Shown: positions 741 to 16,136 of the stretch, one piece after another | Layout of the letters: every line of letters starts with the position of its first letter | Numbering within the stretch: the first letter of the stretch is position 1 | Source of the DNA: a bacterium | Lineage (GTDB): Bacteria > Patescibacteriota > Patescibacteriia > UBA10025 | Reading direction: 5' to 3' | NCBI GenBank assembly: GCA_021815445.1 | Contig: JAKAGM010000002.1 | Span: forward strand, 307,720-371,719 | Length of the DNA: 64,000 bases | The notes under the pieces: generated by a model | The model's input: the letters and a program-made list of their open reading frames with translations, nothing else | Databases searched by the model: none | Told to the model about the DNA's origin: nothing | Made by a program: the position numbers and the translations under genes

Positions 741-3464
741 ATGAATGGGAACGCCGAATTTCCAGGGGTAACTCTGGACGATATCAGGCGCGTCCCCAAT
801 CCGACTCCTGCGTTTTGGAGTTGGATGTGGGATGCGTTCGCTAACGGCCGGCTTGATATTGCCGTGCAAGCGGCACTCAGCGCCGGACAGGCAACGGGTG
901 TCGAAAGCGCCCTATCGTTTTTGCAGGAATTGGGGAGCCGCTGTCAGGGCGAACCTTCAGCCGTGCACGTCGCGGACATTCAAAGGAAGCGACATTCCTC
1001 TCGGCATACCAGTACGCTACAGAAGATGTTAGGGGCGCCTACCTGGGCGAAGGATCCGCAGCTTATCTTAGGAGCACGCGGTCACGCCGTAGCCTCAGCA
1101 CTTTTGCGAGGAGCATACGATTCACATCGTAGTTCTTCCAAACATTACAAAGGTCCAGCCGGACAGCTTTCGTTATTTCCTCCCTTTGTTGATGTACCAC
1201 CCGGCGGGCAAACCAGACTTTTTTCTGGACCAGCCAGTTATAGTGAGCCACGGAATCCTCAAGGCGTCCGTCGGGCATCGTACCCAGTATTGATTCACCG
1301 CATCGAAAAGCACTGGGACGTCATTCGTAGGCTTATCGAGAATGGTGATCTCAACGCTTGGCGGACACGCAAAGGTGTAGTCCACAGGCTTGAACAAGCA
1401 ATCGAACAGATTGTCGGTGATCCGATCAACAAGCTCTGGCGAGAAGGGTGGGATCCCAGCGGCAACCTCGTTGTCCTCACCATCTTAAGCTGGGCGGCGA
1501 TGATTATCTCCCGCGGTCTGCAACGAATTCCCCACGCACTTTTTACTGAGATTGGAGTTCTCGGACAGCAGCATGGTTTGGGCGGCGGACGGATTGACGC
1601 AATTGAAGTGACTAGTATCAACGGTAAAAATCCGACTCCGTACCAGCAGAGGCTGCTTGGGATTCTCAGCAAAGGGCATTATCGATCCACAGGCCATTTG
1701 ATGAGAGTGCTCCTGGGGAATTTCCGCAACCCGGAGATCGTCGTTATCGACTGGAAATTTTTAGTCGGTGACATGATGAGTCGCGGATCCCAGCCTGATT
1801 TGCGCGCTCTTTGCGCCTCGCCCTTGTCTCACCACGAGGACCAGATGAGACGGTATTTAACGCTTATCCAGCTTGACTACCATCTCACTATTCGTCACCC
1901 CGAGCTCTGGCAGACAAATGAATTCTCGTTGCACGGGGAGCTTCATTACATCTTTCCGCACTGCAAACCTGTCGTTCACAACGTATCCATGACGCCCCAG
2001 GAGCTCGAGCAGTGGTTTGCGAATTCTGTGGCGCTTCGATGGTCGGCTGTCCAACGCCGAGCAATAGTACGCGTGGTAGACAACTTCATTATGGGAACGC
2101 TCGTCGGATTGCTCAACGGCCGTCCGCGGAAAAGAAACGGTACCCTGCACAACGGTGAAGCCGGTGAGCAGATTGAGCTCATACCAGCAGAGCCGCGAGT
2201 AACAGCTGCAACCATCGTTGAGCGAACTCAGGATTCCCACAGGAGGTTTGTTGATGAACATCAGATCATAGAGATTGTCGAGGAAAGACCATCGGGACAG
2301 GTCATCGAAATGCGACTGGATCGTCTTATGGAATGCGTCAGCCAGGGGTCTGTCTCAACGTTCGGGTTCTCCGCAGCACGTGGCGGAAAAATCCAATGTC
2401 TCATGCCTGGTCATCGGGACTCCACTTTCTCCCTGCAGGTGTATCTCGCTGATTTCCGTCCGCATTTTCACTGTTTCGGATGCGGGGCACACGGAAAAAT
2501 TGCGAGTGAATCAATTTCTCGCGAGTTTGCCCTTGCGTTCATTGCGAATCACCAAACTGACGCGCGTACAATTCAGCCGGTGACCAGCTCCCGACTGCCG
2601 GTCATTCCTGAAGAGCACCACCGTATCATGTCGTGCGCGCAAAAACTGCTTTCAGGAAATTTCTGGAACAGTGAGGGAGAGAGATACCTTGTGCAGACCC
2701 GCAAACTTGATGTTCAGCTCGCGTTTGAAAAGGGCGCGGGCTACGCCGATAGTCGGTTCATTTGCGCTCTCCTGGAGGAAGGGCTGACAGTTGATGAGCT
2801 GATCGTCTACGGATTCGTCGGTATTTCGCGCTCGGTATCCAGCCGACACGGACTAGCGCCGCTTCTGTTTGATCGCGGTTTCAAGCTTAACGAGATCAAG
2901 CGCCCGCTCCCCGGTTCAACTTCTGGGAAACCTATCTGGGGGATGCCGTATTCAACCCTTAACAACCGCGTCACCTTTCCGTTGACGCTTGAGGGGAGGG
3001 TTACCAATATCTATGGCCGGGCGGCGTACCGATGCGATAGAAGATTCTCGCATAGGAAGCTCTCGACCGAAAAGACAAAAGTTCCCCAAGGCGGATTCCA
3101 CATGGAAGCGCTCGAGGGAGAGGAAGGCGAGGTCGTAATCTCCGAAGGTGCGATTGATGCACTATCGCTCATCGAGCTCGGATGGCCCCGATCGCTGGCG
3201 ATGATAGGCGTCAGTAATACTGCCATCATCCGCGTCATGGCGCGGTCGCAGCGGAATTTCGCTATAGCGTTAGATAACGACGATACGGGAAGGAGGGAGA
3301 CAGCGAAGCTTGTAGAGCGACTCCGGGGCTTCGGATGGAAAGGCCAATCGCGCGACTTCACGGGCGAGTTTGTCCGACAACATCATGATCGCCAGTTCAA
3401 GGATTACAATGATTGGCTTATTGCTACCCGACTGCCGGCACCCGACGATGATCCGCCCTTTTAA
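741..3464 (+). CDS. DnaG-type primase (CHC2 zinc finger + TOPRIM) with a ~500-aa N-terminal extension of unknown function
   Basis: Primase zinc-binding motif CLMPGHRDSTFSLQV...HFHCFGCGAHGKI. A TOPRIM follows: VVISEGAIDALSL...FAIALDNDDTGRRE. The N-terminal half has no motif I recognise, apart from a possible PD-(D/E)xK-like pair (GRIDAIEV ... VVIDWKF). Confidence 0.6.
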   Translation: MNGNAEFPGVTLDDIRRVPNPTPAFWSWMWDAFANGRLDIAVQAALSAGQATGVESALSFLQELGSRCQGEPSAVHVADIQRKRHSSRHTSTLQKMLGAPTWAKDPQLILGARGHAVASALLRGAYDSHRSSSKHYKGPAGQLSLFPPFVDVPPGGQTRLFSGPASYSEPRNPQGVRRASYPVLIHRIEKHWDVIRRLIENGDLNAWRTRKGVVHRLEQAIEQIVGDPINKLWREGWDPSGNLVVLTILSWAAMIISRGLQRIPHALFTEIGVLGQQHGLGGGRIDAIEVTSINGKNPTPYQQRLLGILSKGHYRSTGHLMRVLLGNFRNPEIVVIDWKFLVGDMMSRGSQPDLRALCASPLSHHEDQMRRYLTLIQLDYHLTIRHPELWQTNEFSLHGELHYIFPHCKPVVHNVSMTPQELEQWFANSVALRWSAVQRRAIVRVVDNFIMGTLVGLLNGRPRKRNGTLHNGEAGEQIELIPAEPRVTAATIVERTQDSHRRFVDEHQIIEIVEERPSGQVIEMRLDRLMECVSQGSVSTFGFSAARGGKIQCLMPGHRDSTFSLQVYLADFRPHFHCFGCGAHGKIASESISREFALAFIANHQTDARTIQPVTSSRLPVIPEEHHRIMSCAQKLLSGNFWNSEGERYLVQTRKLDVQLAFEKGAGYADSRFICALLEEGLTVDELIVYGFVGISRSVSSRHGLAPLLFDRGFKLNEIKRPLPGSTSGKPIWGMPYSTLNNRVTFPLTLEGRVTNIYGRAAYRCDRRFSHRKLSTEKTKVPQGGFHMEALEGEEGEVVISEGAIDALSLIELGWPRSLAMIGVSNTAIIRVMARSQRNFAIALDNDDTGRRETAKLVERLRGFGWKGQSRDFTGEFVRQHHDRQFKDYNDWLIATRLPAPDDDPPF

Positions 3465-4169: not shown

Positions 4170-4772
4170 ATGAAAAAGAAACACTTCTATCTTTCGCTTG
4201 TTATGGTTATCGTCGCTGTCGGGATTTTAACCGCTGTCATTTCTTCGGGCAAAGGAAAGATAGGAAGCGTGGAGAGCTCCTCAGAAGTGTCGGGCAATAT
4301 ACAGTTTGAGAATGCAATCGGTAAGCGGGCGCCGGATTTTGAGCTTGAAAATACCAACGGCGCCAAGGTCAGTCTCAAACAGCTTCGGGGAAAGGCCATC
4401 GTCCTCTTCTTTAACGAAGGAAGCATGTGCTATCCGGCGTGTTGGAATCAGGTTAAAGAGCTCGCCGCCGACCAACGACTGAACAATGATCAGATTCAGG
4501 CTTACTCCATTGTCGACGAGTCAAAAGGCGCGTGGCAAAGCATCATGAAGAAGCAGCCGGAATATTCGACTGATAAAATGTTGTTTGATACCTCGCGGAA
4601 AGTATCTCTGGCGTATGATGTTCTTTCGCTTCCTTCCTCGATGCATAAAGGAGCATTTCCGGGACACACCTACATTGTGATAGATAAAGAGGGGATAATC
4701 CGCTACGTGCTTGACGATCCGAGCATGGCAATCCGCAACGACCAGATTCTGGCCGAGGCACAAAAGATCTAA
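4170..4772 (+). CDS. Membrane-anchored thioredoxin-like thiol:disulfide oxidoreductase (TlpA/ResA/redoxin family)
   Basis: Start MKKKHFYL, then an N-terminal TM. The motif FELENTNGAKVSLKQLRGKAIVLFFNEGSMCYPAC carries a CxxC-type redox pair in a thioredoxin fold. Confidence 0.75.
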   Translation: MKKKHFYLSLVMVIVAVGILTAVISSGKGKIGSVESSSEVSGNIQFENAIGKRAPDFELENTNGAKVSLKQLRGKAIVLFFNEGSMCYPACWNQVKELAADQRLNNDQIQAYSIVDESKGAWQSIMKKQPEYSTDKMLFDTSRKVSLAYDVLSLPSSMHKGAFPGHTYIVIDKEGIIRYVLDDPSMAIRNDQILAEAQKI

Positions 4773-4786
4773 CCCGTACTTCCCCT

Positions 4787-5683
4787 ATGGATCTTCTTAT
4801 CTCATCATCACTGATTACCGCATTTCTTGCCGGTGTTGCCGCGCTCTTCGCCCCCTGTTGCATTACCGTGCTCTTGCCCGCGTACCTCGCCTCGATATTC
4901 AAAGAAAAGCGCACGGTCTTTCTGATGACGTTTGTGTTTTTTCTCGGGCTGTTGACCATCTTCTTGCCGCTCGGGCTCGGATTCGCGGGTCTCGGGAAAT
5001 TTCTGACGCGAAACCATACGTGGGTCTTTATCGGGGGAAGCATTATTATGTTCGCGCTCGGAACCATGATATTGCTGGGCAAGCATATTTCCCTTCCTGT
5101 CCACCTGCCATCGACGAAGATTACCAATACCGGATCGGTGTATCTGCTCGGTATCTTTTCTGGAATAGCCACAGTATGTTGCGCGCCGGTGCTGGCAGGA
5201 ACACTTACCTTGTCTGTCCTGCCCGGGTCGGTGCTATGGGGAGGCGTATATGCGGTCGTGTATGTACTGGGCATGGTGATCCCGCTCTTCGTCATCGCCT
5301 TCTTCCTTGATGAAACACATGCAATAAAGAAATTGAAGATTTTCCGGGCTACGATGTCGTATTCCATCGGTGCGCGACAGGTGCATTTACGCATCGCCGA
5401 TCTTATTTCAGGTTTTACCTTCCTTCTTATGGGTGTCGTCACGGTGATTGTCGCGATAAAGAATCCTTCCGGCGGAATGGTCTTTTCGGGATCTGCTCTG
5501 CAGACAGCAGTCAATATCACAGCCTCGCAGATTACCGACGCGCTTTCACGCACCTCAGGCTCGGTTCCCGCATTCGCCTGGCTGATCGCCGTAGGCCTCA
5601 TTATTCTCGGTATTGTCGTCTATGCATGGAAAAGGTCGCATGATCCGTTAGCTGACAGCACGAAAGGAGGTGAAGAATTATGA
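4787..5683 (+). CDS. DsbD/CcdA-superfamily polytopic membrane protein with vicinal Cys-Cys motifs; a possible metal or thiol transporter
   Basis: FAPCCITVLLPAYL and TVCCAPVLAG occupy the two positions where CcdA has single Cys residues. Multi-TM protein. The stop overlaps the next start. Confidence 0.6.
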   Translation: MDLLISSSLITAFLAGVAALFAPCCITVLLPAYLASIFKEKRTVFLMTFVFFLGLLTIFLPLGLGFAGLGKFLTRNHTWVFIGGSIIMFALGTMILLGKHISLPVHLPSTKITNTGSVYLLGIFSGIATVCCAPVLAGTLTLSVLPGSVLWGGVYAVVYVLGMVIPLFVIAFFLDETHAIKKLKIFRATMSYSIGARQVHLRIADLISGFTFLLMGVVTVIVAIKNPSGGMVFSGSALQTAVNITASQITDALSRTSGSVPAFAWLIAVGLIILGIVVYAWKRSHDPLADSTKGGEEL

Positions 5684-6300
5684 AAGTGAAATACATTTTG
5701 AATGGAATTATATTCATCTATGCGTTCTTTTTTGTCGTCTTGAACGGGTTTCTGCTTGCCAGCACAGCCGTCATGGCGACCACCGCGATGGTGTCGCCAT
5801 CCCCAACAACTACGCAAACACAGCAGTCGCAAGGTCCCACGAATGCGCAGGTAGCTTCTGTCGTTGCCCAAGTTATCCCTGCGGGCATCCCGCCGGTGTA
5901 CGGATCGGAGCTCAATGTGAATTTCTCGAATCCTGTTGCGAGTCTGACTATCCTTGACGGCTATGACCGAGGCGCAAATAAAATTGATCTTCAGGGCGAT
6001 GCGCTCGCGCGATACATCAAGATAGCAATGAAAACGGCCTGTGAATTCTGTTGCGGAGCAAAAACGCTCGTGTTCAAAGATGGCAGTCCGGCATGCGGAT
6101 GCGCCCATTCAGCGGCAATGCGCGGCGTTGCCAAGTACTTGATCCAAAAACACGGCACTGAATTCACCGATGAGCAAATTCTGACTGAAGTGAATAAGTG
6201 GAAAGCGATATCGTTCCCCAAGCAGACGGTGGAGCGGGCGCTCGCGAGTGCCGGAGGGAGCAGCTCCGTAAATCTTCCCTCGCAAGTGGGCGGATGTTAA
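5680..6300 (+). CDS. Secreted Cys-rich protein ending in LPSQVGGC
   Basis: Signal peptide, a Thr/Gln-rich linker, then the cysteine cluster CEFCCGA...SPACGCAHS. The C-terminus is NLPSQVGGC. Confidence 0.5.
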   Translation: MKVKYILNGIIFIYAFFFVVLNGFLLASTAVMATTAMVSPSPTTTQTQQSQGPTNAQVASVVAQVIPAGIPPVYGSELNVNFSNPVASLTILDGYDRGANKIDLQGDALARYIKIAMKTACEFCCGAKTLVFKDGSPACGCAHSAAMRGVAKYLIQKHGTEFTDEQILTEVNKWKAISFPKQTVERALASAGGSSSVNLPSQVGGC

Positions 6301-6341
6301 CCGCCTCCAATATTCTAATATCCATAATCAATGAATAGCAT

Positions 6342-6641
6342 ATGAGCCAGATTTCCTCCCCGCACGGAGACGTGCTTCACAGACATGAGGATGCCCCGAA
6401 GGACAAGGTTGTTCAAATCCGCCTGAACCGGAGCACATTCATGAGCGGCATTTTACTTCTCTTTGCCATCGTGGTGACGGTGCAGTTCTTCCAGATCAAG
6501 GGCCTCAGGGCTCAGGTGACTAATTCCGGATCCGCACAGCAGCCGTCGGTGTCCGCCCCCGCCTCACAACAACCGGCTGCGCAACCGGCGCAGTCCTCGG
6601 GAGCGTTGCAAAACCTGCCAAGCCAGGTTGGAGGCTGTTAG
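6342..6641 (+). CDS. Small membrane-anchored Gln/Pro/Ala-rich protein ending in LPSQVGGC (alternative start 6441)
   Basis: The C-terminus QNLPSQVGGC is identical to the preceding protein's, with different codons. One TM helix (ILLLFAIVVTVQFF). Confidence 0.45.
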   Translation: MSQISSPHGDVLHRHEDAPKDKVVQIRLNRSTFMSGILLLFAIVVTVQFFQIKGLRAQVTNSGSAQQPSVSAPASQQPAAQPAQSSGALQNLPSQVGGC

Positions 6642-6645
6642 CCAT

Positions 6646-6885
6646 ATGAAGAGAGCCGAGCTAATCTTTTTTTCGCTCGTCGGACTCGTACTCCTAGTAG
6701 TGCTTGCCGCATCATTTGCCCCGCAGGCGCAGAAGTCGTTCCGCAATACCCCGGAAAACTATGCTCGCGCAAAGGCAGCGGAGGTCGCCGGCAACCCTTG
6801 TGCAACCCCGCCGGGGTACACTGATGCCCAATGGCGCCAGCATATGAGCCACCATCCGGATCAATATCCCGGCTGTCTGAAATAA
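6646..6885 (+). CDS. Small membrane-anchored His/Cys-containing protein
   Basis: TM anchor, then NPCATPPGYTDAQWRQHMSHHPDQYPGC. The two Cys and the His cluster suggest metal binding; that reading is inference. Confidence 0.4.
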   Translation: MKRAELIFFSLVGLVLLVVLAASFAPQAQKSFRNTPENYARAKAAEVAGNPCATPPGYTDAQWRQHMSHHPDQYPGCLK

Positions 6886-6889
6886 AGGT

Positions 6890-7630
6890 ATGAATCTCGT
6901 AGCCTTCCCATTTCTCTTCGGCATCCTCGCGTTCTTGTCACCCTGCATTATGCCCATGCTGCAGGTATATTTGTCCTTAGTTACCGGAACAACGATTTCC
7001 GAGCTAACGACAAAAGATCCGGATGCAGAGGTCCGCCGTAGAGTTTTGGGAAGGACTGCGTGCTTCATCCTGGGATTCAGTGTTGTATTCGTACTGGCCG
7101 GTATGTTTGCTGGTTCAGTAGGATCGTTCCTGAAGGAGAGATCGGTCGTGCTCAATTATATCGGGGGGTTGATCATCGTTCTGCTGGGCCTCAAGATGCT
7201 CGGAGTGTTCCAGATGAAATTTCTCAGCAATCTGCATCTAGAGCCGGAGCGATTTCCCTTGCTCAAGAAGGATACCATGGCTGGAGCATTCTTGGTCGGC
7301 CTCTTTTTCGCGGTAGCCTGTTCGCACTGTTTCGGACCGCTGTTGTACTCCACGCTTATCGTTGCTGCCAATACCCAGTCCGCAACCAGCGGACTCGTAG
7401 TGCTCTTGAGCTTCTCTGCAGGCTTGGCTGTTCCGTATTTTATCACTGCCGCAGCGCTGCCGAGCGTTCTCGGGATGCTTCGACGGTTCAGCGCTGCAAT
7501 TACCGTGATCATAAAGGCGAGCGGGGCGTTCCTGGTCATTTTCGGCGTATTGGTGTTCTTCAACCAGTTTCAAATTCTCGCAACGCTTCTGGGCAAGATT
7601 GTTCCATGGGGAAATATCCTTTCCCTATAA
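6890..7630 (+). CDS. ccdA: Cytochrome c-type biogenesis / thiol-disulfide electron transporter CcdA
   Basis: LSPCIMPMLQVY in TM1, then a second conserved Cys motif, CSHCFGPLL. Roughly six TM helices. Confidence 0.8.
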   Translation: MNLVAFPFLFGILAFLSPCIMPMLQVYLSLVTGTTISELTTKDPDAEVRRRVLGRTACFILGFSVVFVLAGMFAGSVGSFLKERSVVLNYIGGLIIVLLGLKMLGVFQMKFLSNLHLEPERFPLLKKDTMAGAFLVGLFFAVACSHCFGPLLYSTLIVAANTQSATSGLVVLLSFSAGLAVPYFITAAALPSVLGMLRRFSAAITVIIKASGAFLVIFGVLVFFNQFQILATLLGKIVPWGNILSL

Positions 7631-7825: not shown

Positions 7826-8209
7826 ATGGCCAAACCTTCATTTCACCTCCTTGGAGACCTTGAGAAGCAGATCATGGAAATTGTTTGGAAACAGGAGCAG
7901 GTTACCGTCAGAGGCGTTGTAGAAATACTCCATAAAAAGCGTGAGATTGCTTATACGACAGTCATGACAGTTATGAACCGGCTTTCCGAGAAAAAGCTGC
8001 TCACCCGAAAGGAAGACGGCGGCGCTTTTGCATATGTAGCCACCCAGAAACGGGAATTATTCATGAGTAGGGCATCCGAAAATGTTATTCGTGGGCTGTT
8101 ATCCGAGTGCGGAGAGGTGGCCATAGCCCAATTTGTTGAAGCACTCGAGGATGTTGATCCGGCGAAGTTAGCACTGCTTGAAAAAAAGATTAGGGAAAAA
8201 CGGTCATGA
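7826..8209 (+). CDS. BlaI/MecI/CopY-family winged-helix transcriptional repressor (no C-terminal Cys-rich metal-binding tail)
   Basis: N-terminal penicillinase-repressor fold (IMEIVWKQEQVTVRGVVEILHKKREIAYTTVMTVMNRLSEKKLLTRK). No CxCx4CxC tail. Confidence 0.8.
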   Translation: MAKPSFHLLGDLEKQIMEIVWKQEQVTVRGVVEILHKKREIAYTTVMTVMNRLSEKKLLTRKEDGGAFAYVATQKRELFMSRASENVIRGLLSECGEVAIAQFVEALEDVDPAKLALLEKKIREKRS

Positions 8210-9258
8210 ATAAGCGAGACAGATCTACATTTTGGTCGTTTGTCCTCTACAGCGCGAGCGGAATATTCGGTATTAGTGCCGCCGCGGTGCTTGGCGGTGC
8301 GCTCCTGCCTCATATATCTTCCTCAGTGGGAATTCTCCTCGCACGCGTGGTGCATACGTGCAGCCAATTACTTTCGACTGTTGCAGGGCGGGATATTTTC
8401 CTCAGCTCATTGAACGCGCTTATTCTGCTTTTCGTGGGAGCCTTTTTCCTGACAGGTGCTGGTCTTTTTTTCCATGCCTCGTGGAAGACTGGACGGTACG
8501 TCTCATCTTTGCGAAAAAAAATTTTTCACCTTTCGGATTCTCGAAAAAAGATGTTCAATACAATGTTTCCGTCACTTACCCTCGTCGGAGTGGATGATCA
8601 GCATCCCTTCGTAGTGAGCGCCGGTTTGTTCAAACCGAAAATATACGTCAGCGCCGGTTTGTTGACTCTCTTATCGGACGATGAGCTTGTAAGCGTTTTT
8701 AAACACGAGGAATACCATTGCAGAAATCGGGACACCGCACGTTTGTTTATCGTGCATTTTTTCAGAAAACTGTTTTGGTTCGTTCCCGGCATTTCAAAGT
8801 TTGCCGCACAGGTCCAGACACTTTTTGAAATATCAGCTGATGAGCACGCTATCCACGCACTTGGTGATGATACGGCACTCGGGAGTGCACTTGTAAAAGT
8901 ACTTCGCCACCCGTCTCATTCGGCGATACCGGAACTCATTCCGGCTTTTTCTTCGGTGAATGATCGCATTGGGCGGCTTCTAGACGCGTCCTACAAACCT
9001 TCGACACGTGCAGCCGTGGCGGTGCCGATTTTTGGGATACTATTCCTGCTTCTTTCGGTGTTCTTTGCCCGAGGCAGTTTCGCCGCACCCAATGTTGCTT
9101 TTGACGGTTTCGAATTGCATAAGATGTCCCAGTCAAGAATATGTCCACAAATTGTTCCCGAACTGCTCATGAGCGTTCCTCAGAACCGTGTCTGCGTCCA
9201 CCCGCAAAATAGTACGCAGGCGCCGTCATGCGGCGAAACACACCCTACAACTAACTAG
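8206..9258 (+). CDS. BlaR1/MecR1-like M56 integral-membrane metalloprotease (anti-repressor), lacking a penicillin-binding sensor domain
   Basis: Four TM helices. The motif HEEYH (HExxH) sits in FKHEEYHCRNRD. At 350 aa there is no room for the C-terminal BlaR sensor domain. Start overlaps the repressor gene stop. Confidence 0.75.
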   Translation: MNKRDRSTFWSFVLYSASGIFGISAAAVLGGALLPHISSSVGILLARVVHTCSQLLSTVAGRDIFLSSLNALILLFVGAFFLTGAGLFFHASWKTGRYVSSLRKKIFHLSDSRKKMFNTMFPSLTLVGVDDQHPFVVSAGLFKPKIYVSAGLLTLLSDDELVSVFKHEEYHCRNRDTARLFIVHFFRKLFWFVPGISKFAAQVQTLFEISADEHAIHALGDDTALGSALVKVLRHPSHSAIPELIPAFSSVNDRIGRLLDASYKPSTRAAVAVPIFGILFLLLSVFFARGSFAAPNVAFDGFELHKMSQSRICPQIVPELLMSVPQNRVCVHPQNSTQAPSCGETHPTTN

Positions 9259-9276
9259 AGAACATGCACTCATTAT

Positions 9277-10230
9277 ATGTCTGATACCATCACAAAAGAT
9301 ATTTGGATCCAGGGTATGCACTGTGACGCATGCGAAAAAACTATCCGCAAATCATTGGAACGCATAGGGGTAGGTGTTGAAGATATTCGTTATACTAATA
9401 ATCGTGTTGAATTACTCTATGATCCGCTGAGAGTGCCTTTCTCCCAAATTGAAGGTGCCGTCGCTGACGTCGGGTACCGCGTGCGAGAAACTCCTCCCGA
9501 GGAATCAGGTCCGCGGGAAACTTCAATTGAGCGCGCCAAAAGGGTTTTTCATTCTTTTCGAAATGACCCTGAAGCGTATCAACTGGAAAAACAAGTCATC
9601 AAAAGCACGCTCGGTACGTTGTTTATTGCGGCGGCATTAGAGTATCTCATCTATTTTATTTTCTTTTGGAACATTCAAGGATTTCTCCATACCTACGGCC
9701 AATATCTTGGGTACTTGATTGTCGGTGTCGTCGCAACAGGAGGAGCGGTAAGGCACTTACGGGCGTATCAGGGGGCCGTTTCATGCATGACAGGAATGAT
9801 GATTGGAATGACCATCGGGATGATTTCCGGCCTGCTTCTGGGGGCAGTTGTTGGCGCAACCAACGGCATGTTCGTTGGCTCTGTTTTCGGGATGGCTGTC
9901 GGTATGGCCGTCGGCGGCTGGGTAGGGGTGTGTTGTGGGATCATGGGACTCATGGAAGGCATGATGGCGGGGCTTATGGGCGGCACTATGGGCGCGATGA
10001 TCGGGGTGATGATGATTCCCGACAGACTCACGCTCTTTTTGCCGATATTCTTTGTCGCATGTCTTGCAATACTCGCAGGTCTTAGCTATATGGTGTACAA
10101 GGAGCACAAAGGCGCGCGAGACGAGGTAAAGTTGTATGGATTCTGGCCGTATACTTTTATCAATTTTGCATTCGTTCTTGCGGGAACCATCATCATCGTG
10201 TGGGGACCCAAGGCGGCATTTTTACGTTAA
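9277..10230 (+). CDS. HMA (CopZ-like) domain fused to a Met/Gly-rich polytopic membrane domain
   Basis: N-terminal GMHCDAC heavy-metal-associated motif. The membrane part is glycine-zipper/Met-rich (GMMIGMTIGMISG...GMAVGMAVGGWVGVCCGIMGLMEGMMAGLMGG) and includes a vicinal CC. Confidence 0.65.
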   Translation: MSDTITKDIWIQGMHCDACEKTIRKSLERIGVGVEDIRYTNNRVELLYDPLRVPFSQIEGAVADVGYRVRETPPEESGPRETSIERAKRVFHSFRNDPEAYQLEKQVIKSTLGTLFIAAALEYLIYFIFFWNIQGFLHTYGQYLGYLIVGVVATGGAVRHLRAYQGAVSCMTGMMIGMTIGMISGLLLGAVVGATNGMFVGSVFGMAVGMAVGGWVGVCCGIMGLMEGMMAGLMGGTMGAMIGVMMIPDRLTLFLPIFFVACLAILAGLSYMVYKEHKGARDEVKLYGFWPYTFINFAFVLAGTIIIVWGPKAAFLR

Positions 10231-10236
10231 CGAAAA

Positions 10237-10461
10237 ATGGATACTCTTACGCTTTCAATTTCGGGCATGCATTGCGCATCCTGCAGTAAACTGATCACTA
10301 TGGACCTGGAAGACATCGGCGTGACAGCCAGTATTGATCGCGACACCGGAAAGGGCAAAGTTACATTTGATCCTCAAAAAGTTTCGCAGGACCAAATACT
10401 CGATCAAATCAAAAAAAGCGGTTATCAGGCGTCAGTTATCACGGGTGGGACAGCACAATGA
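10237..10461 (+). CDS. copZ: Copper chaperone CopZ (single HMA domain)
   Basis: 74 aa with GMHCASC. Confidence 0.85.
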   Translation: MDTLTLSISGMHCASCSKLITMDLEDIGVTASIDRDTGKGKVTFDPQKVSQDQILDQIKKSGYQASVITGGTAQ

Positions 10462-11216
10462 ACGTCACTCAATTACCGCTTGCACTTTCTTTTGTCTTCG
10501 GTGTTCTTTCCATCATATCCCCCTGCGTGATAGTTTTGCTGCCCGCGTACTTGGCCACCATCACGGGGTTCAGCATCGAAGAGCTCACTTCAGCAGAACA
10601 CGAGAGCATTGTCCTTCGAAGGATACTTGGAAATGCGCTCGGGTTTATTCTCGGCTTCTTCCTGGTTTTTATCCCTCTAGGTGCGCTGATCGGTGTGGCG
10701 GCAACTGCGATAGGAAGCGCACGATCGGTTTTCGCGGTCGTCGCGGGCGTCATCGTCGTGCTCCTCGGGATGAATTTCCTGTATCCGCTCCCTTTTCTCA
10801 GGTGGATCAACACCGATGTCCGGATTCGCTGGAAACCTCGCGGCTATTCGTTCATCAGTAATATTTTCTTCGGCGCCGTATTCGCTTTTGTATGGACTCC
10901 CTGCGTTGGACCGTATCTCGTGGCTGTCACAGCTCTGGTCGGGTCGACGGGAGACATCGGCAAAGGCGTAGCGTACTTTTCTCTCTACGCACTCGGTCTG
11001 GCGATAAGCATGCTCGTATTTACTGTCTTTTACACCAAAGTGGCATTCGTGACGAATTTTCTCAAACAACACTCGCGGTCTATCCAAGTAATCAGCGGAA
11101 TTCTCCTTATCACCATCGGCATTCTCATGATATCCGACAAACTCTATCTTACCAACATTGCTATCAATAAATTCTTCGGCGGTTTCCAACCCGAATCGTG
11201 GTTTATTAATTCATAA
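10458..11216 (+). CDS. ccdA: CcdA-family thiol-disulfide transporter (second copy)
   Basis: ISPCVIVLLPAYL in TM1, with a second Cys motif TPCVGPYL. Confidence 0.8.
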   Translation: MNVTQLPLALSFVFGVLSIISPCVIVLLPAYLATITGFSIEELTSAEHESIVLRRILGNALGFILGFFLVFIPLGALIGVAATAIGSARSVFAVVAGVIVVLLGMNFLYPLPFLRWINTDVRIRWKPRGYSFISNIFFGAVFAFVWTPCVGPYLVAVTALVGSTGDIGKGVAYFSLYALGLAISMLVFTVFYTKVAFVTNFLKQHSRSIQVISGILLITIGILMISDKLYLTNIAINKFFGGFQPESWFINS

Positions 11217-11227
11217 TATACAGCACT

Positions 11228-11659
11228 ATGGCCTCACAAAAATCAGACAGTTCGCATTTTATCAGAAATATGATGATCGTCATGGGCATTGTCACTGCTC
11301 TCAGCGGTGCAGCTGCCTGGCGTCTCGGTTCACGGGCGACAATTACGCCGAGAACAAGTGACACCACGGTTGCCGACGATTTGTCCGGAAGCGCGCAAGA
11401 CGCTGTTTCTATCACCGTAGCGTCCTCAGGATATACTCCGGGGGAAATCACGGTACCTCAGGGCAAGAAAGTTCGCCTCAACCTTGTCACCAACGGCACG
11501 TACGGATGCATCCGCTCTTTTGTCATCCCGAAACTTGGGATTTCAAAAACTCTCCCGACAAGCGGCACGACAACCGTCGAGTTTACTCCGACGGAAAAGG
11601 GGACACTCGCGTTCCAGTGTTCCATGGGGATGTTCAGGGGAAATATTAAAGTCATATAA
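11228..11659 (+). CDS. Cupredoxin-like (Cupredoxin_1/EfeO-N-type) protein with N-terminal TM anchor
   Basis: C-terminal YGC...FQCSMGMFRGNIKV copper-site-like motif. Paralogous to the next gene. Confidence 0.6.
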   Translation: MASQKSDSSHFIRNMMIVMGIVTALSGAAAWRLGSRATITPRTSDTTVADDLSGSAQDAVSITVASSGYTPGEITVPQGKKVRLNLVTNGTYGCIRSFVIPKLGISKTLPTSGTTTVEFTPTEKGTLAFQCSMGMFRGNIKVI

Positions 11660-11665
11660 ATTTTC

Positions 11666-12037
11666 ATGGACCCGCGCCAACTGATTGGCATTGTTCTGAT
11701 CGCACTAGTCGTAGGGCTTTTTTTTCTGTGGCTGAGGTTCCAGCGGCGCCAAGAGCGCGCCTCAGAGAGCGGTGGTATCCAAGAGGTTACCATTCTCGTC
11801 AAGGGAGCGTACGATCCGAACGTGATTACCGCAAAGGCCGGCATACCCCTTCGTATCCATTTTAACCGGCAGGAAGATACTGACTGCTCCCGGTTTGTTA
11901 CCTTCGATACGCTCCATCTAAGAAAGAATTTAAAATCCTTTTCGACAACCGAAATCGAATTTACCCCAGAAAAAGCGGGCGAGTATCCTTTCGCATGCGA
12001 TATGGGCATGTATCAGGGAAAGTTGATCGTAAAATAG
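11666..12037 (+). CDS. Cupredoxin-like protein (tandem paralog)
   Basis: FACDMGMYQGKLIVK C-terminus with the same architecture. Single TM anchor. Confidence 0.6.
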   Translation: MDPRQLIGIVLIALVVGLFFLWLRFQRRQERASESGGIQEVTILVKGAYDPNVITAKAGIPLRIHFNRQEDTDCSRFVTFDTLHLRKNLKSFSTTEIEFTPEKAGEYPFACDMGMYQGKLIVK

Positions 12038-12046
12038 TAGAGACAT

Positions 12047-14341
12047 ATGGGACAGCAGACGACGACATTATCACTTCGGGGAATGCATTGCGCGAGTTGC
12101 GCGCAGTTGATTGAGCGCGGGCTCAAAAAGGTTCCGGGGGTGCAGCAAGCCAACGTAAATTACGGCACCGAACGAGCCCATGTAGTGTTCGACTCGGTGA
12201 CTGCCTCGGTTGATTCCTTGATTCGGGGCGTGGAGAATGTCGGGTATCATGCCAAGGAACTAAAAGAAGACCGTCAGTCGCGCCAGTCAGAAGACGACGA
12301 ACGTCGCCGGGAGATACAGAAAATCAAGACAAAATTTTTTATCAGTCTCGTCCTATCCCTCCCCGTGCTCGTGCTCAGTATGGGCATGAAGATTGTTCCC
12401 GCGATCGAAAATATACCGAATCGCGAATGGATCCAGTTTCTCTTTGCGACGCCCATTCAGTTTTGGGCCGGGTGGCAGTTCTATCGTGGATTCTGGGGGG
12501 CGCTGAAGGCCCGTACGGCGAATATGGACAGTCTCATCGCCCTCGGCACCTCCGCGGCGTATTTTTACTCCTTAGTCGTTATCCTCAAGCTTGTTGAGGG
12601 GGAAGTATACTTTGAAATAGGGAGCATTCTGATTGCATTCGTTCTCCTGGGCAAATGGCTCGAGGCGCGAGCCAAAGGCAAGACAGGAGAAGCCATCAAA
12701 AAGCTCATGGGCCTGGCGCCCACTACTGCGTTTGTTATTCGCGGCGAGAGGGAGCTGGAGATCCCGCTCGAACAGGTGGTCGTCGGGGATCATATCCGGG
12801 TGAAACCGGGGTCGAAGATTCCTGTTGACGGCATGGTTGAAGATGGCGTTTCGTCGGTTGATGAGTCAATGATAACCGGCGAAAGCATTCCAGTAGAAAA
12901 AAGCGCCGGAACGGCGGTGATCGGCGGAACTATCAATATCCACGGCTCATTCGTCTTCCAGGCGAAAAAGATTGGGAAAGAAACGTTACTTGCCGGAATT
13001 ATTAAGCTCGTTGAGGATGCTCAGGCGTCCAAGGCGCCCATTCAGCGTTTTGCCGACCGGGTATCGGCGTATTTTGTCCCTATAGTCATCGCGCTCGCGC
13101 TCATTACCTTTCTGTCATGGTATTTTATCGCGGCCCAGCCGTTTGTTTCCAGTTTACTCGCGTTTGTCGCCGTGCTAGTCATCGCCTGCCCCTGCGCGCT
13201 CGGTCTCGCCACTCCTACGGCAATTATTACTGGCACGGGACTGGGCGCGTCGCGGGGCATTCTCATCAAAGGCGGTGAAGCGCTTGAAGCAGCCAGAAAA
13301 ATCGACACGGTGGTTTTTGACAAGACGGGGACCCTGACGATAGGCAAGCCGCTGGTCACGGATATTGTCCAGCTTGAAGAAGGCCAGAAAGCGCTCACCT
13401 TTTTTATTCATCAGATGGCCGGCACGCATATTGAAGATATCCTGCTCCAGGTCGCCGCATCACTCGAGGCGCAATCGGAGCACTCGTTGGCTGAGGCCAT
13501 TGTCAAAGAGGCAAAAGTTCGAAAATTGCCGTTATTTGCCATACGGAATTTTTCCGCGCAGCCGGGCAGAGGAGTGTATGCTGAAATTGTTCCCGCAGAC
13601 GGCGTTACATCAACAGTCAATGTACTTCTAGGTAATAGGAAGATGATGGTCGAAGCGGGGATACCTCTAGGTTCCGCCGAATCCTTTATGCATGCACTTG
13701 AGGAACAGGGCAAGACAGTGATGGCGGTCGGCATACTCGGCCAGCAGGGATCTACGCATGTTGTTGCGGGGCTTATCGCCGTCTCTGATGTTCCAAAGCA
13801 GGATGCCAGAGAAGCGGTTCGCGCGCTCACAGAACGTGGAATTTCTGTCGCGATGATTACCGGCGACAACAGGAGGACCGGAGAGGCTATCGCGCGGCAG
13901 CTGGGCATCACCCGAGTTCTGGCCGAAGTATTGCCCCAGGACAAAGCCGACGAAGTAAAGAAACTTCAGGCAGAAGGGAAGAAAGTGGCTTTTGTCGGGG
14001 ATGGAGTCAATGATGCTCCGGCGCTTGCCTCGGCAGATCTCGGCATTGCCATCGGCTCGGGGACTGACGTTGCGCTCGAGGCCGGGCAGATTGTGCTGGT
14101 AAAAAACAATTTACTCGATGTCGTCAGAGCTATCCGACTTTCTCAGGCGACGTTTCGTAAAATTGTCCAAAATCTTTTTTGGGCCCTTATCTACAATGTC
14201 GCCGGCATACCCATCGCGGCAGGGGCATTGTACGGGGTGCTCGGATGGCAACTGAGACCCGAAATTGCCGGAGCGGCTATGGCTCTGTCCAGTGTCTCTG
14301 TTGTGACAAATTCTCTTCTTTTAAAGCGATTTCGAGCATAA
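12047..14341 (+). CDS. copA: Copper-translocating P1B-type ATPase CopA
   Basis: N-terminal HMA (GMHCASC), CPC motif ([11 protein letters not shown]), DKTGTLT phosphorylation site and the GDGVNDAP hinge. Confidence 0.95.
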
Positions 14342-14426: not shown

Positions 14427-15209
14427 TTGCGTCTAAAGGGCAAGTTACCTTCCTTATGGTATACTGGAATCATTATGGCTGGTATCCCACCACTAGAACC
14501 CGTAAAAAAGCCGTTGGTACTCCGATGGTGGTTTTTGATGACAGTTTTTTTGGCCGTAATAATAGCCGGTTCGTTTGGGATGTTAGTGTATGAAAATTAC
14601 CGCGCCCTCCAGAAAGGTGAGATAAGCATTGCAGGAGGTATCACGCGGGATCCGAACGCTACGGCGACAAATGTAGCGATTGCCAATGTGGTCACTGATG
14701 ACGACCCTTCTCTTGGTCCTAAAGATGCCAAGGTGGTCGTAGTCGAGTTTGCCGATTTTCAATGTCCGTATTGTCAGGAGGCATTTCCCATTATCAGGGA
14801 GCTTACGGTGAAGTACGCAGACAAGGTCCGGTTTATTTATCGTGATTTTCCCGTGGGCAGTGTGCACCCGGACGCCCAAAACGCGGCAATAGCAGCGTCG
14901 TGCGTAGCCAAGCAGGATCAGGTGAAGTTTTGGCTCTATCATGACAAACTTTACCTGAACCAGGAAGATTTAGGCCAGGACGCACTCTTAAGATACGCCC
15001 TGCAGGTAGGCGCAGACGAACAGAAGTTTCTCGCATGCATCAATGATTCGAGCGTTGCCCAGGAGGTTCAAAATGATTATCAGGACGGCATTATCGCCGG
15101 CGTGACGGGGACTCCGACATTCTTTATAGACGGCAGGCGGGTACCGGGGGTGATCCCTCTCGATATCTTCACAAAGGCGCTTGATTCCGAACTTTCCAAA
15201 CAACAATAA
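14427..15209 (+). CDS. Membrane-anchored DsbA-like thiol:disulfide oxidoreductase
   Basis: FADFQCPYCQEAFP CxxC motif in a DsbA fold. N-terminal TM. Alternative start at 14475. Confidence 0.75.
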   Translation: MRLKGKLPSLWYTGIIMAGIPPLEPVKKPLVLRWWFLMTVFLAVIIAGSFGMLVYENYRALQKGEISIAGGITRDPNATATNVAIANVVTDDDPSLGPKDAKVVVVEFADFQCPYCQEAFPIIRELTVKYADKVRFIYRDFPVGSVHPDAQNAAIAASCVAKQDQVKFWLYHDKLYLNQEDLGQDALLRYALQVGADEQKFLACINDSSVAQEVQNDYQDGIIAGVTGTPTFFIDGRRVPGVIPLDIFTKALDSELSKQQ

Positions 15210-15356
15210 ACCACAGACGTAAACAGTCGGTCACCCTACGCCAGTCCAATTCTTTCTTTGGTCGCTGACATGAGAAAGTGAAGCGGGTTGACTACTTTAC
15301 GCCTGCTGGTATACTAGGACGACTACCTCTAATTATTTTTTAAAAGTTTCGTTACT

Positions 15357-16136
15357 ATGGAGAAAGAACAAAAGATAACTCACCAATCAGAGGACGGTAT
15401 TTTCCAGGCGTCGCCAAAAGTGACGTTTTACTTGGGATTGCTGTCGGGTATCACGCTTGTCAGCGTCATCGGTTTCTTTTTAACCTTTTCGATGCTACGA
15501 AGCGGATCTGTCGTGACAAAGAACACAAACTCAGGAACCAATGGGACGGTCGCCGGTGCAGATACAAACACGAATACTGCTGCTGCTCCTGCAGCTGCCC
15601 CGACAGCACCCGTTGATATCAAACTCACCGCTGATGACCACGTGAAGGGTAATGCAAATGCCAAGGTAACTCTGGTAGAATATTCTGACTTCCAGTGCCC
15701 GTTTTGCGCTACAGTCAGACCAACATTGGATCAAGTTATGAAGGACTATGGGGATAAAGTAAAACTTGTGTATCGCAATTATCCTCTGACTTCACTGCAT
15801 CCGATGGCCCAAAAGGCGGCAGAAGCATCAGAGTGCGCATCTGAGCAAGGGAAATTCTGGGAGATGCACGATAAACTCTTCGACCAGAATACTGCGGGCA
15901 CGATGAGCGTGGATAACTTCAAGAAAGCTGCCGGAGAGTTAAAACTCAACCAGAGCCAGTTTGATACCTGTCTCGACACAGGAAAGTATGCGAGCAAGGT
16001 TACAGCCTCCGAGACCGAGGGGACTTCATTCGGCGTGCAAGGCACCCCGGCGACTTTCGTCAACGGCGTGCTTATTTCCGGTGCGGTGCCATATGCGCAG
16101 TTTAAGACTGCGATAGACAACGCATTGAGCTCCTGA
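15357..16136 (+). CDS. Membrane-anchored DsbA-like thiol:disulfide oxidoreductase (paralog)
   Basis: YSDFQCPFCATVRP. An Ala/Thr-rich linker follows the TM anchor. Confidence 0.75.
   Translation: MEKEQKITHQSEDGIFQASPKVTFYLGLLSGITLVSVIGFFLTFSMLRSGSVVTKNTNSGTNGTVAGADTNTNTAAAPAAAPTAPVDIKLTADDHVKGNANAKVTLVEYSDFQCPFCATVRPTLDQVMKDYGDKVKLVYRNYPLTSLHPMAQKAAEASECASEQGKFWEMHDKLFDQNTAGTMSVDNFKKAAGELKLNQSQFDTCLDTGKYASKVTASETEGTSFGVQGTPATFVNGVLISGAVPYAQFKTAIDNALSS

Follow-up and report, generated by a model that had tools for sequence, protein, structure and literature searches.

The window analysed here is a stretch of 64,000 nucleotides (64 kb) from a bacterium of the Patescibacteriota (Patescibacteriia, UBA10025; GenBank assembly GCA_021815445.1, contig JAKAGM010000002.1, positions 307,720 to 371,719), and its subject is a pair of neighbouring open reading frames (ORFs) whose proteins end in the same nine residues. 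ORF A (window positions 5680..6300, plus strand) encodes a protein of 206 residues, and ORF B (6342..6641, plus strand) one of 99 residues. As read from the sequence, both terminate in NLPSQVGGC, encoded at 6271..6297 (plus strand) and followed by TAA in ORF A, and at 6612..6638 (plus strand) and followed by TAG in ORF B; the respective C-termini are ...SSSVNLPSQVGGC-TAA and ...GALQNLPSQVGGC-TAG. The original prediction had reported an octapeptide common to the two proteins; the shared stretch is in fact one residue longer and, as was also claimed, is not a DNA repeat, since 8 of the 27 bases differ between the two tails (AATCTTCCCTCGCAAGTGGGCGGATGT vs AACCTGCCAAGCCAGGTTGGAGGCTGT). No other reading frame of the 64-kb window ends in this way. 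A match of nine C-terminal residues has a chance probability of ~0.06^9, or ~1e-11 per pair (our own arithmetic, no tool), which is negligible even across all ORF pairs, and coincidence is therefore excluded as the origin of the shared tail. Stop-codon reassignment or readthrough is likewise rejected: the two frames close with TAA and TAG, and no homologue extends past the tail.

The protein of ORF A begins with an N-terminal anchor that bears an N-x-x-[Q]-type motif; a low-complexity linker leads from there to the Cys/His-rich domain (C121-E-F-C124-C125 ... C139-G-C141-A-H143), which a second, short linker joins to the tail. It had been described as a Cys-rich secreted protein, of which the first term holds and the second gives way to a predicted N-terminal membrane anchor (helix 2-35 in the structural model). 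A word-indexed search yields 195 relatives, which, where named, are hypothetical proteins of candidate phyla radiation (CPR) bacteria, including Falkow-, Kerfeld- and Buchananbacteria, and of DPANN archaea, including Diapherotrites, Aenigmarchaeota, and Micrarchaeia. No Pfam domain is found among the 195. A scan of one genome per GTDB species places a relative of A in 497 loci, and a profile search run exhaustively over 1.84 billion cluster representatives retrieves 320 relatives at E ≤ 0.001. Six loci (L010, L014, L050, L063, L071, and L076) are titled 'uncultured Gammaproteobacteria', yet their A and B sequences group with CPR types, which suggests mislabelled bins.

The tail is the hallmark of family A. 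Among the best 120 of the 195 relatives, on which the tail statistics are based, every one has a GGC end, which in 114 is part of [QM]VGGC. A further 136, more distant representatives comprise 101 with a GGC end, 17 in which the terminal Cys persists and one Gly is replaced (VGSC, VGDC, VGAC, QGEC), and 18 that are mostly fragments or frameshifted reads, so that the terminal Cys is kept in 118 of the 136; a lipoprotein-type paralogue of A ends in IGSC. By these counts the terminal Cys is the best-conserved feature of A, followed by the two glycines, while the LP of the tail is replaced by SG or GG in many members. In an alignment of 112 sequences, the invariant positions are C121, C124, and C125 (CEFCCG), C139, C141, and H143 (ACGCAHS), G204, G205, and C206, and a few structural residues. 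The original prediction that the tail is conserved at the protein level is thereby upheld, and its presence in orthologues, a check that had been set beforehand, leaves the proposed refutation without force.

The AlphaFold2 model of A, built from the 112 sequences, has a mean predicted local distance difference test (pLDDT) score of 91.9 and consists of a long N-terminal helix, a disordered linker (pLDDT 55-65, and under 50 for residues 41-44), and a helical domain that carries the Cys motifs on short beta-knuckles. Residues 191-206 have no secondary structure in this model and are nonetheless placed with a pLDDT of 88-89; in the AlphaFold2 model of a homologue whose C-terminal region/linker is 30 residues longer, the last 17 residues score 84. 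The high tail scores in both models mean that the tail of A is modelled as packed on the domain rather than free. The fold has no known counterpart in the collections consulted: a Foldseek comparison of the model with the PDB gives nothing below E = 0.98, a profile search of PDB sequences with A finds nothing, and Pfam and NCBIfam are blank for A, for B, and for the small HHPDQY protein encoded immediately downstream (see below). Larger fusion proteins that contain the A domain carry no informative Pfam domain except for one FKBP.

ORF B has a predicted cytoplasmic N-terminus, a single transmembrane (TM) helix ending in VQFFQIKGL, a Gln/Pro/Ser/Ala-rich linker, and the tail, the terminal Cys of which is its sole cysteine. 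A word-indexed homologue search with ORF B recovers only ORF B itself, and the relatives of family B were gathered by synteny with A in 80 loci, i.e., the fetched stretches that hold family A and that are the base for all neighbour counts in this text. A B-type ORF of 50-225 residues (median 89) occurs on A's strand in 78 of the 80 loci, separated from A by a median intergenic gap of 29 nt; B lies between -130 and +600 nt of A's stop in 75 loci, and eight loci possess two B-type genes. This conserved association of tail-bearing neighbours implies that the two tails act to a common end, and to that extent supports the earlier interpretation. The closest relative of the window, L082, encodes an A protein 67% identical to ORF A and a B orthologue of 111 residues that is 58% identical to ORF B. 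The ratio of nonsynonymous to synonymous substitution rates (dN/dS) between the two B genes is 0.15, with saturated dS, and is comparable to that of the neighbouring genes. On the matching contig DAIENG010000002.1 (assembly GCA_027341205.1), ORF B and the next small ORF are both called as genes. Its conservation and the dN/dS value establish ORF B, the existence of which as a gene had been left open to doubt, as a real gene under purifying selection. The start of ORF B (6342) has no obvious Shine-Dalgarno sequence, and ORF A is preceded by AAGGAGGTG. The Gly-Gly codons of the B tail (gtt GGA GGc tgt tag; 6622-6648) form a Shine-Dalgarno-like GGAGG positioned 9-10 nt 5' of the next start codon, ATG 6646.

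Across the family, B proteins retain the same plan: the predicted cytoplasmic N-terminus, sometimes His-rich or with a CC pair, precedes one TM helix, and a low-complexity linker connects this helix to the tail. In 70 of 86 B proteins there is no cysteine besides the terminal one. Met/His motifs, YEQMMxRMHPDQ or NEKMNYEMHGTIP (the latter also given as NEKMNYEMHG), are present in B linkers at 16 loci. Seven of 44 cytoplasmic N-termini of B are His-rich (at least three His) and seven of 44 have Cys pairs; of 173 cytoplasmic N-terminal extensions of A, 38 contain at least three His and 10 contain Cys pairs. Such compositions are a hint that metal may be bound on the cytoplasmic side too.

The two families also share a motif at the outer end of the TM helix, which reads phi-phi-Q-x-phi-[QE]-L-x-x-L in B and phi-F-N-Q-x-Q-[IL]-x-x-L in A. 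The pattern [NQ]xx[QE][LIMV] following a hydrophobic run is matched by 64% of B proteins, 31% of A proteins, and 2 of 3624 other ORFs of the neighbourhoods, and profile-profile alignment with hhalign superimposes the A and B anchors with a probability of 81%. With anchor and tail in common, B is in effect an A protein minus its globular domain. The earlier statement that the two proteins have unrelated bodies is thus correct insofar as only A has a globular domain and fails for the membrane anchor. The polar residues of the anchor, together with leucines spaced at i, i+3, and i+7, suggest helix-helix association. A similar motif, FFNQFQIL, ends the last TM helix (window 7540-7600) of CcdA2, a DsbD_TM protein encoded downstream (6890-7630), and is conserved in L082; it is not a general feature of the DsbD_TM proteins in the 80 loci.

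In the DNA surveyed, the tail is essentially confined to these two families. In 202 related loci totalling 1.89 Mb, 264 ORFs end in [QM][VIAQT]GGC, with 115 belonging to family A and 140 being B-like. The remaining nine comprise two truncated B proteins, one divergent A, and six GC-rich out-of-frame chance matches that stem from the pattern scan. A DNA pattern scan of metagenomes, which covered the LPxQVGGC-stop variant, gives among the matches listed 31 A proteins, 48 B-like proteins, and 6 ORFs that are truncated, most of which have tails resembling those of A/B; the rest are chance. A third tail-bearing family was found neither in the window nor in the 1.89 Mb of related loci nor among the metagenome matches listed, and this confinement to A and B marks the tail as a system-specific element rather than a general sorting signal.

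Within a genome the tails of A and B resemble each other more closely than they do across genomes. At the five variable tail positions, A and B of the same genome are identical at 3.24 positions, vs 1.91 +/- 0.10 when partners are shuffled, and rare variants of the near-invariant Val appear in both partners of one genome, namely MAGGC (L027), QQGGC (L028), and QIGGC (L067). The co-variation and the shared rare variants count in favour of the two tails using the same pocket. At identical tail residues, 53% of codons are equal between A and B of a genome, vs 38% in the between-genome control, and the tail DNA is nearly identical in L033 (30/30), L064 (28/30), and L067; a few such loci have the appearance of recent gene conversion. 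The codons differ in most genomes, including this window, and overall it is chiefly protein-level selection that maintains the similarity of the two tails.

A and B belong to a same-strand island that extends from ~4.1 to 16.1 kb of the window and whose genes all lie on the plus strand. The genes upstream of A encode a membrane-anchored AhpC/TSA-redoxin-like protein with a CYPAC motif (4170..4772 from the annotated start; Pfam AhpC-TSA, 2.7e-18) and a DsbD_TM/CcdA-like membrane protein (4787..5683; Pfam DsbD_TM, 5.6e-07), the latter overlapping the start of A by 4 nt. The TM segments of this CcdA-like protein contain vicinal Cys pairs (APCCITV, TVCCAPV) where a single Cys is usual, and its homologue in L021 (11783-13357) is fused to a C-terminal redoxin domain. 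Downstream of B is the gene for an anchored protein of 79 residues (6646..6885) with a C..PPGYT..W..H[ML]xHHPDQY..C domain, hence HHPDQY; its true start is ATG 6646 and not TTG 6628, and its dN/dS is 0.11. HHPDQY homologues are located 3' of A in at least 32 of the 80 loci, which makes HHPDQY a recurrent third component. This count derives from BLASTP and a regular expression; the count from an iterative hidden Markov model search was disregarded because the search drifted into family A via a natural fusion. Such fusions, in which HHPDQY precedes the A domain, occur in L053 (9737-10417) and P0157 and have no VGGC tail; the L053 locus still has a B gene.

Directly 3' of A-B-HHPDQY follow CcdA2 (6890..7630; Pfam DsbD_TM, 3.4e-18), a BlaI/CopY-type repressor (7826-8209; Pfam Penicillinase_R, 7.2e-29; NCBIfam CopY_TcrY, 4.1e-16, below the cut-off), and an M56 BlaR1-like membrane protease (8206-9258; Pfam Peptidase_M56, 1.2e-13). 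The latter two (7826..9258) are the probable regulatory pair for the island. BlaI and M56 genes are adjacent in the loci mapped in detail, which is the usual BlaR1/BlaI regulatory arrangement. Farther downstream lie the genes for an HMA-domain protein that has Gly/Met-rich TM segments with a VCC motif (GVCCGIMGLMEGMM) (9277..10230; Pfam HMA, 1.5e-07), a third DsbD_TM protein (10458-11216), two N-terminally anchored Cupredoxin_1 proteins with a C...CxMxM signature (FQCSMGMFRG, FACDMGMYQG; 11228-12037), a heavy-metal P-type ATPase of the CopA type with an HMA domain (12047-14341), and two DsbA-like proteins (14427-16136). The family assignment of the 9277-10230 protein is HMA only, and its homologues are near A in 25-29 of the 80 loci. 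The placement of cupredoxins directly 5' of an HMA-bearing P-type ATPase (11228-14341) is a CupA/CopA-like arrangement in a CPR-type genome. Scans for promoters and terminators between 3400 and 10400 give sites no more numerous than in shuffled sequence, and base composition across the island shows no anomaly. Immediately 5' of the island, a 907-residue Toprim-domain (primase-like) protein (741-3464) could mark a mobile or replicative element, yet base composition is normal.

The same functions recur in the vicinity of A elsewhere. Among genes within 5 kb of A, DsbD_TM-like proteins are found in 55 of the 80 loci, often directly after A-B(-HHPDQY), and a P-type ATPase/HMA cluster in 38; BlaI occurs in 31, M56 in 30, TM regulators with a winged helix-turn-helix (DUF7343) in 30, thioredoxin-repeat proteins that follow B in 27, and DsbA in 15. 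In many of the CcdA-like neighbours, a domain at the N-terminus contains a CGHC motif and matches DUF411 weakly, below threshold (E 0.0037). Judged from its neighbours, the setting of A-B is mostly one of envelope copper (soft-metal) and thiol-redox homeostasis. Several further families recur near A-B and have no Pfam or NCBIfam match: (i) an uncharacterised TM family with MLACCAHH, found within 5 kb of A in 34-36 of the 80 loci (e.g., L035 12612-13226, MLACCAHHVSD), (ii) a TM protein with GGYxVCHNxCL (L047 10926-11384), (iii) a cytoplasmic protein with DLSTEEDLSLAIMNLVSLEEHFFF and a CC end (L003 6837-7421), and (iv) a small protein with HxxMMSAH...CH (L043 12355-12573).

The reading tentatively preferred here, at somewhat less than even confidence, is that A and B form a two-protein envelope module of CPR bacteria and DPANN archaea in which extracytoplasmic thiol tails bind or relay a soft metal, probably copper. 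The working part would be the [LV]P-x-[QM]-V-G-G-C-COOH tail, a flexible arm that ends in a free Cys thiol. Both proteins would be anchored with the N-terminus inside and the tail outside the cell. The tail of A would fold back on its own Cys/His-rich domain (five Cys and a His), so that the terminal Cys completes, or temporarily enters, a metal/thiol site there, and the tail of B, on a tether of 17-60 residues beside the membrane, could occupy the same site of A in trans. The two proteins may co-assemble through the shared polar anchor such that several thiol tails converge. The thiolate, together with the Gly-Gly backbone amides and/or the Cys and His residues of A, would capture the soft metal, most likely copper, to be handed between B, A, and neighbouring membrane proteins, while the CcdA-like proteins and the redoxin would hold the thiols reduced and BlaI/M56 would make the module inducible. 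The x-Gly-Gly-Cys sequence at a free C-terminus matches the layout of an SN3 chelate, the coordination of metal by the natural tail being a prediction, and chelation of this kind would explain both the invariant Gly-Gly and the terminal position. Further points counted for a metal are the HMA, Cupredoxin_1, and P-type ATPase genes, the CopY/BlaI-type repressor, and the Met/His motifs of the B linkers. The reading as a whole also draws on the conservation of the tail and of the A-B gene pair, the shared anchor, the restriction of the tail to the two families, its ordered placement in the A models, and the module shuffling seen in the tail-less HHPDQY-A fusion of a locus that keeps B. A terminal metal ligand is the most plausible of the candidate roles listed in the original prediction.

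A more specific proposal is that A is a receptor, a new-fold Cys/His domain that binds the terminal Gly-Gly-Cys, and that B plugs the same peptide into it in trans; the pair would then be a natural thiolate metal hook and a new two-component principle of Bacteria and Archaea. In our estimation this proposal is doubtful. The same low confidence applies to the corollary that such a C-terminal hook is the mirror image of the N-terminal amino-terminal copper- and nickel-binding (ATCUN)/Ni-hook and captures or relays copper or other soft metals at the surface of ultra-small, host-dependent cells.

Several points weigh against a metal-binding module. One thiol on its own binds Cu(I) weakly and would need the help of A or of oligomerisation, and Cu(II)-thiolate chelates are prone to redox reactions. 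The alternation of Q and M at position -5 looks more like steric fit in a pocket than like a metal ligand. Gene conversion may explain part of the co-variation between the A and B tails, and co-variation between tail and domain is confounded: mutual information between tail positions -5/-7 and domain columns mainly reflects phylogeny and cannot be interpreted. For a minority of the pairs (e.g., L054 and L074) there are no obvious metal genes within 5 kb, and DsbD_TM is missing from that distance in 25 of the 80 loci, some of which are truncated.

The strongest rival dispenses with the metal. The terminal Cys would be a thiol-disulfide relay arm that makes transient mixed disulfides with C125 or other cysteines of A, with the other tail, or with substrates, and the thin Gly-Gly-Cys end would reach a CcdA/DsbD-like reductase or a redoxin for re-reduction, like the C-terminal redox tails of other enzymes. 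The island, with its three DsbD_TM proteins, redoxin, and two DsbA-like proteins, fits this account, as do the DsbD_TM-like genes that so often directly follow A-B(-HHPDQY) and the thioredoxin-repeat proteins after B. The same is true of the six invariant cysteines of A, which include a CxxC and reach an even number when the tail Cys is counted, and of the single Cys of most B proteins, which is typical of a mixed-disulfide carrier. Against it stand the lack of a thioredoxin fold in A, the fact that DsbD_TM is not universal near A-B, and the His/Met motifs, the HMA, cupredoxin, and ATPase neighbours, and the His-rich N-termini, all of which point to metal. A relay agrees with most of the data and is, overall, rather unlikely; the relay and metal readings are also not mutually exclusive, because metal binding needs reduced thiols.

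It is improbable that the tail is instead a processing, sorting, or attachment tag, cleaved by an enzyme such as M56 or a membrane protein of the island or joined through its Cys to lipid, wall, or S-layer. A strict short C-terminal peptide on two otherwise different proteins does resemble a sorting signal, and uncharacterised Cys-bearing membrane proteins, e.g., the MLACCAHH family, recur nearby. However, no hydrophobic segment or basic residues follow the motif, only two families carry it and these are always paired, and the same tail serves Bacteria and Archaea despite their different envelopes. A and B are predicted to be membrane-anchored at the N-terminus already, and the tail of A is packed rather than free in the AlphaFold2 models. 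Processing by the neighbouring M56 protease, suggested in the original prediction, is unsupported, given that M56 and BlaI genes each lie near A in under half of the loci. The C-terminal lipidation or attachment suggested alongside it is likewise without support: the tail has no hydrophobic stretch behind it, its cargo is not diverse, and the conserved neighbours, for which genes within +/-10 kb of A were considered, include no recognised enzyme for the task; sortase, exosortase, archaeosortase, and rhombosortase-like families are not among them. Least credible of all is the notion that B is a relic of paralogy, a domain-deleted duplicate of A whose tail is held similar by gene conversion, with only the A tail functional, as a cis ligand. 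B does consist of the anchor, linker, and tail of A, and the near-identity of the tail DNA in L033, L064, and L067 would follow from conversion. A relic would be hard to reconcile with the retention of B in nearly all loci across two domains of life at a dN/dS of 0.15, with tail codons that differ in most genomes and, at identical residues, are equal in only 53% of cases vs 38% in the between-genome control, and with B genes that are sometimes duplicated and have conserved Met/His motifs of their own.

CPR bacteria and DPANN archaea constitute a large part of microbial diversity, and function is lacking for most of their envelope proteins. Defined here are two protein families that have no relatives in Pfam, NCBIfam, or the PDB and that are united by an invariant C-terminal motif, a shared anchor motif, occurrence in ~500 species representatives, and location in copper/thiol islands. 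No description of the families or of the tail was found in Pfam, NCBIfam, the PDB, or the searchable literature (queried for tail strings and for CPR/DPANN copper or CcdA systems). If the Gly-Gly-Cys end is indeed a chelator or a trans-docking arm, it would represent a new handling of soft metals or reducing equivalents outside the cytoplasm; the tail would furthermore serve as a sequence tag for locating the system, and the short peptide could possibly find use as a genetically encoded tag for metal binding. The A-B module lends itself to experiment through its two small soluble ectodomains.

Certain C-terminal motifs that the tail superficially recalls can be set aside. A short conserved C-terminal motif on envelope proteins is shared with the LPXTG/sortase, PEP-CTERM, PGF-CTERM, and GlyGly-CTERM systems, and LPxQ and GG bring LPXTG and GlyGly-CTERM to mind, respectively. 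Unlike these sorting signals, the A/B tail is not succeeded by a TM helix and basic residues, is restricted to two cargo families, and has no recognised cognate enzyme among the conserved neighbours within +/-10 kb of A. An LPXTG sortase signal in particular is rejected, as LP varies among members and no TM segment comes after the motif; the stop codon directly follows the Cys in A, B, and all homologues. A Gly-Gly terminus of the ubiquitin-like/ThiS/MoaD kind, which would call for a cytoplasmic beta-grasp protein, is rejected given that the A model combines a TM helix with a helical domain containing a Cys knuckle and that E1-like and JAMM partners are not among the conserved neighbours, and a CaaX motif because the Cys of A/B is the last residue and not position -4.

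Closer functional parallels come from proteins that present a cysteine on a C-terminal arm. In SoxY, a swinging arm at the C-terminus, GGCGG, bears the substrate on its Cys (PMC6067878; PMC5336275). Like the arm of SoxY, which visits the active sites of its partners, the tails of A and B place a Gly-flanked Cys on a flexible C-terminal peptide, here predicted to be extracytoplasmic. They differ in that A/B end at the Cys (GGC-COOH, not GGCGG) and in that two proteins carry the arm, one of them domainless; moreover, A/B have no SoxY/SoxZ homology in Pfam or NCBIfam, the A model is helical, and there are no sox genes nearby. In MerA, Hg(II) is passed from C-terminal cysteines to the cysteines of the active site (PMC4500099). 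Acquisition of a substrate by a Cys at the extreme C-terminus is analogous to the proposed docking of the A/B tail on the Cys cluster of A. Unlike MerA, a cytoplasmic flavoenzyme with a tail Cys pair, A/B possess a single tail Cys, are extracytoplasmic by prediction, have no homology to it, and include a separate tail-only protein. Mammalian thioredoxin reductase, with its Gly-Cys-Sec-Gly tail, is a comparable case. A chemical precedent is provided by engineered C-terminal x-Gly-Gly-Cys sequences, which form an SN3 chelate from the Cys thiol and the three preceding backbone amides (PMC9653920). The A/B tails have the same sequence layout at the C-terminus; the SN3 chelators are artificial and were shown for oxotechnetium, whereas metal binding by the natural tail is predicted. 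We know of no natural system that uses the C-terminal xGGC chelate layout.

The genomic setting likewise has relatives. The pneumococcal copY-cupA-copA operon contains small N-terminally anchored, Cys-containing chaperones beside a CopY-type repressor and a Cu-ATPase (PMC5646241), to which the CopY-type repressor, the anchored cupredoxins (11228-12037), and the Cu-ATPase of the window correspond. A and B themselves differ from CupA/CopZ in having neither a cupredoxin nor an HMA fold, in being predicted to face outward, and in being defined by a C-terminal tail; Pfam gives no HMA domain (GMxCxxC) in A or B, and HMA is confined to neighbouring genes. The thioredoxin-like partners that depend on DsbD/CcdA resemble A and B in their genetic linkage, with DsbD_TM genes flanking A-B in the window, and are unlike them in that A, despite its CxxC(C), has no thioredoxin-family match and a helical model, and B is domainless. 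SoxY and MerA already exemplify the principle of a terminal cysteine arm, and the genomic setting, too, is of a known kind; what is new is a protein that combines receptor and tail, paired with a tail-only partner, the anchor and the tail being shared across Bacteria and Archaea.

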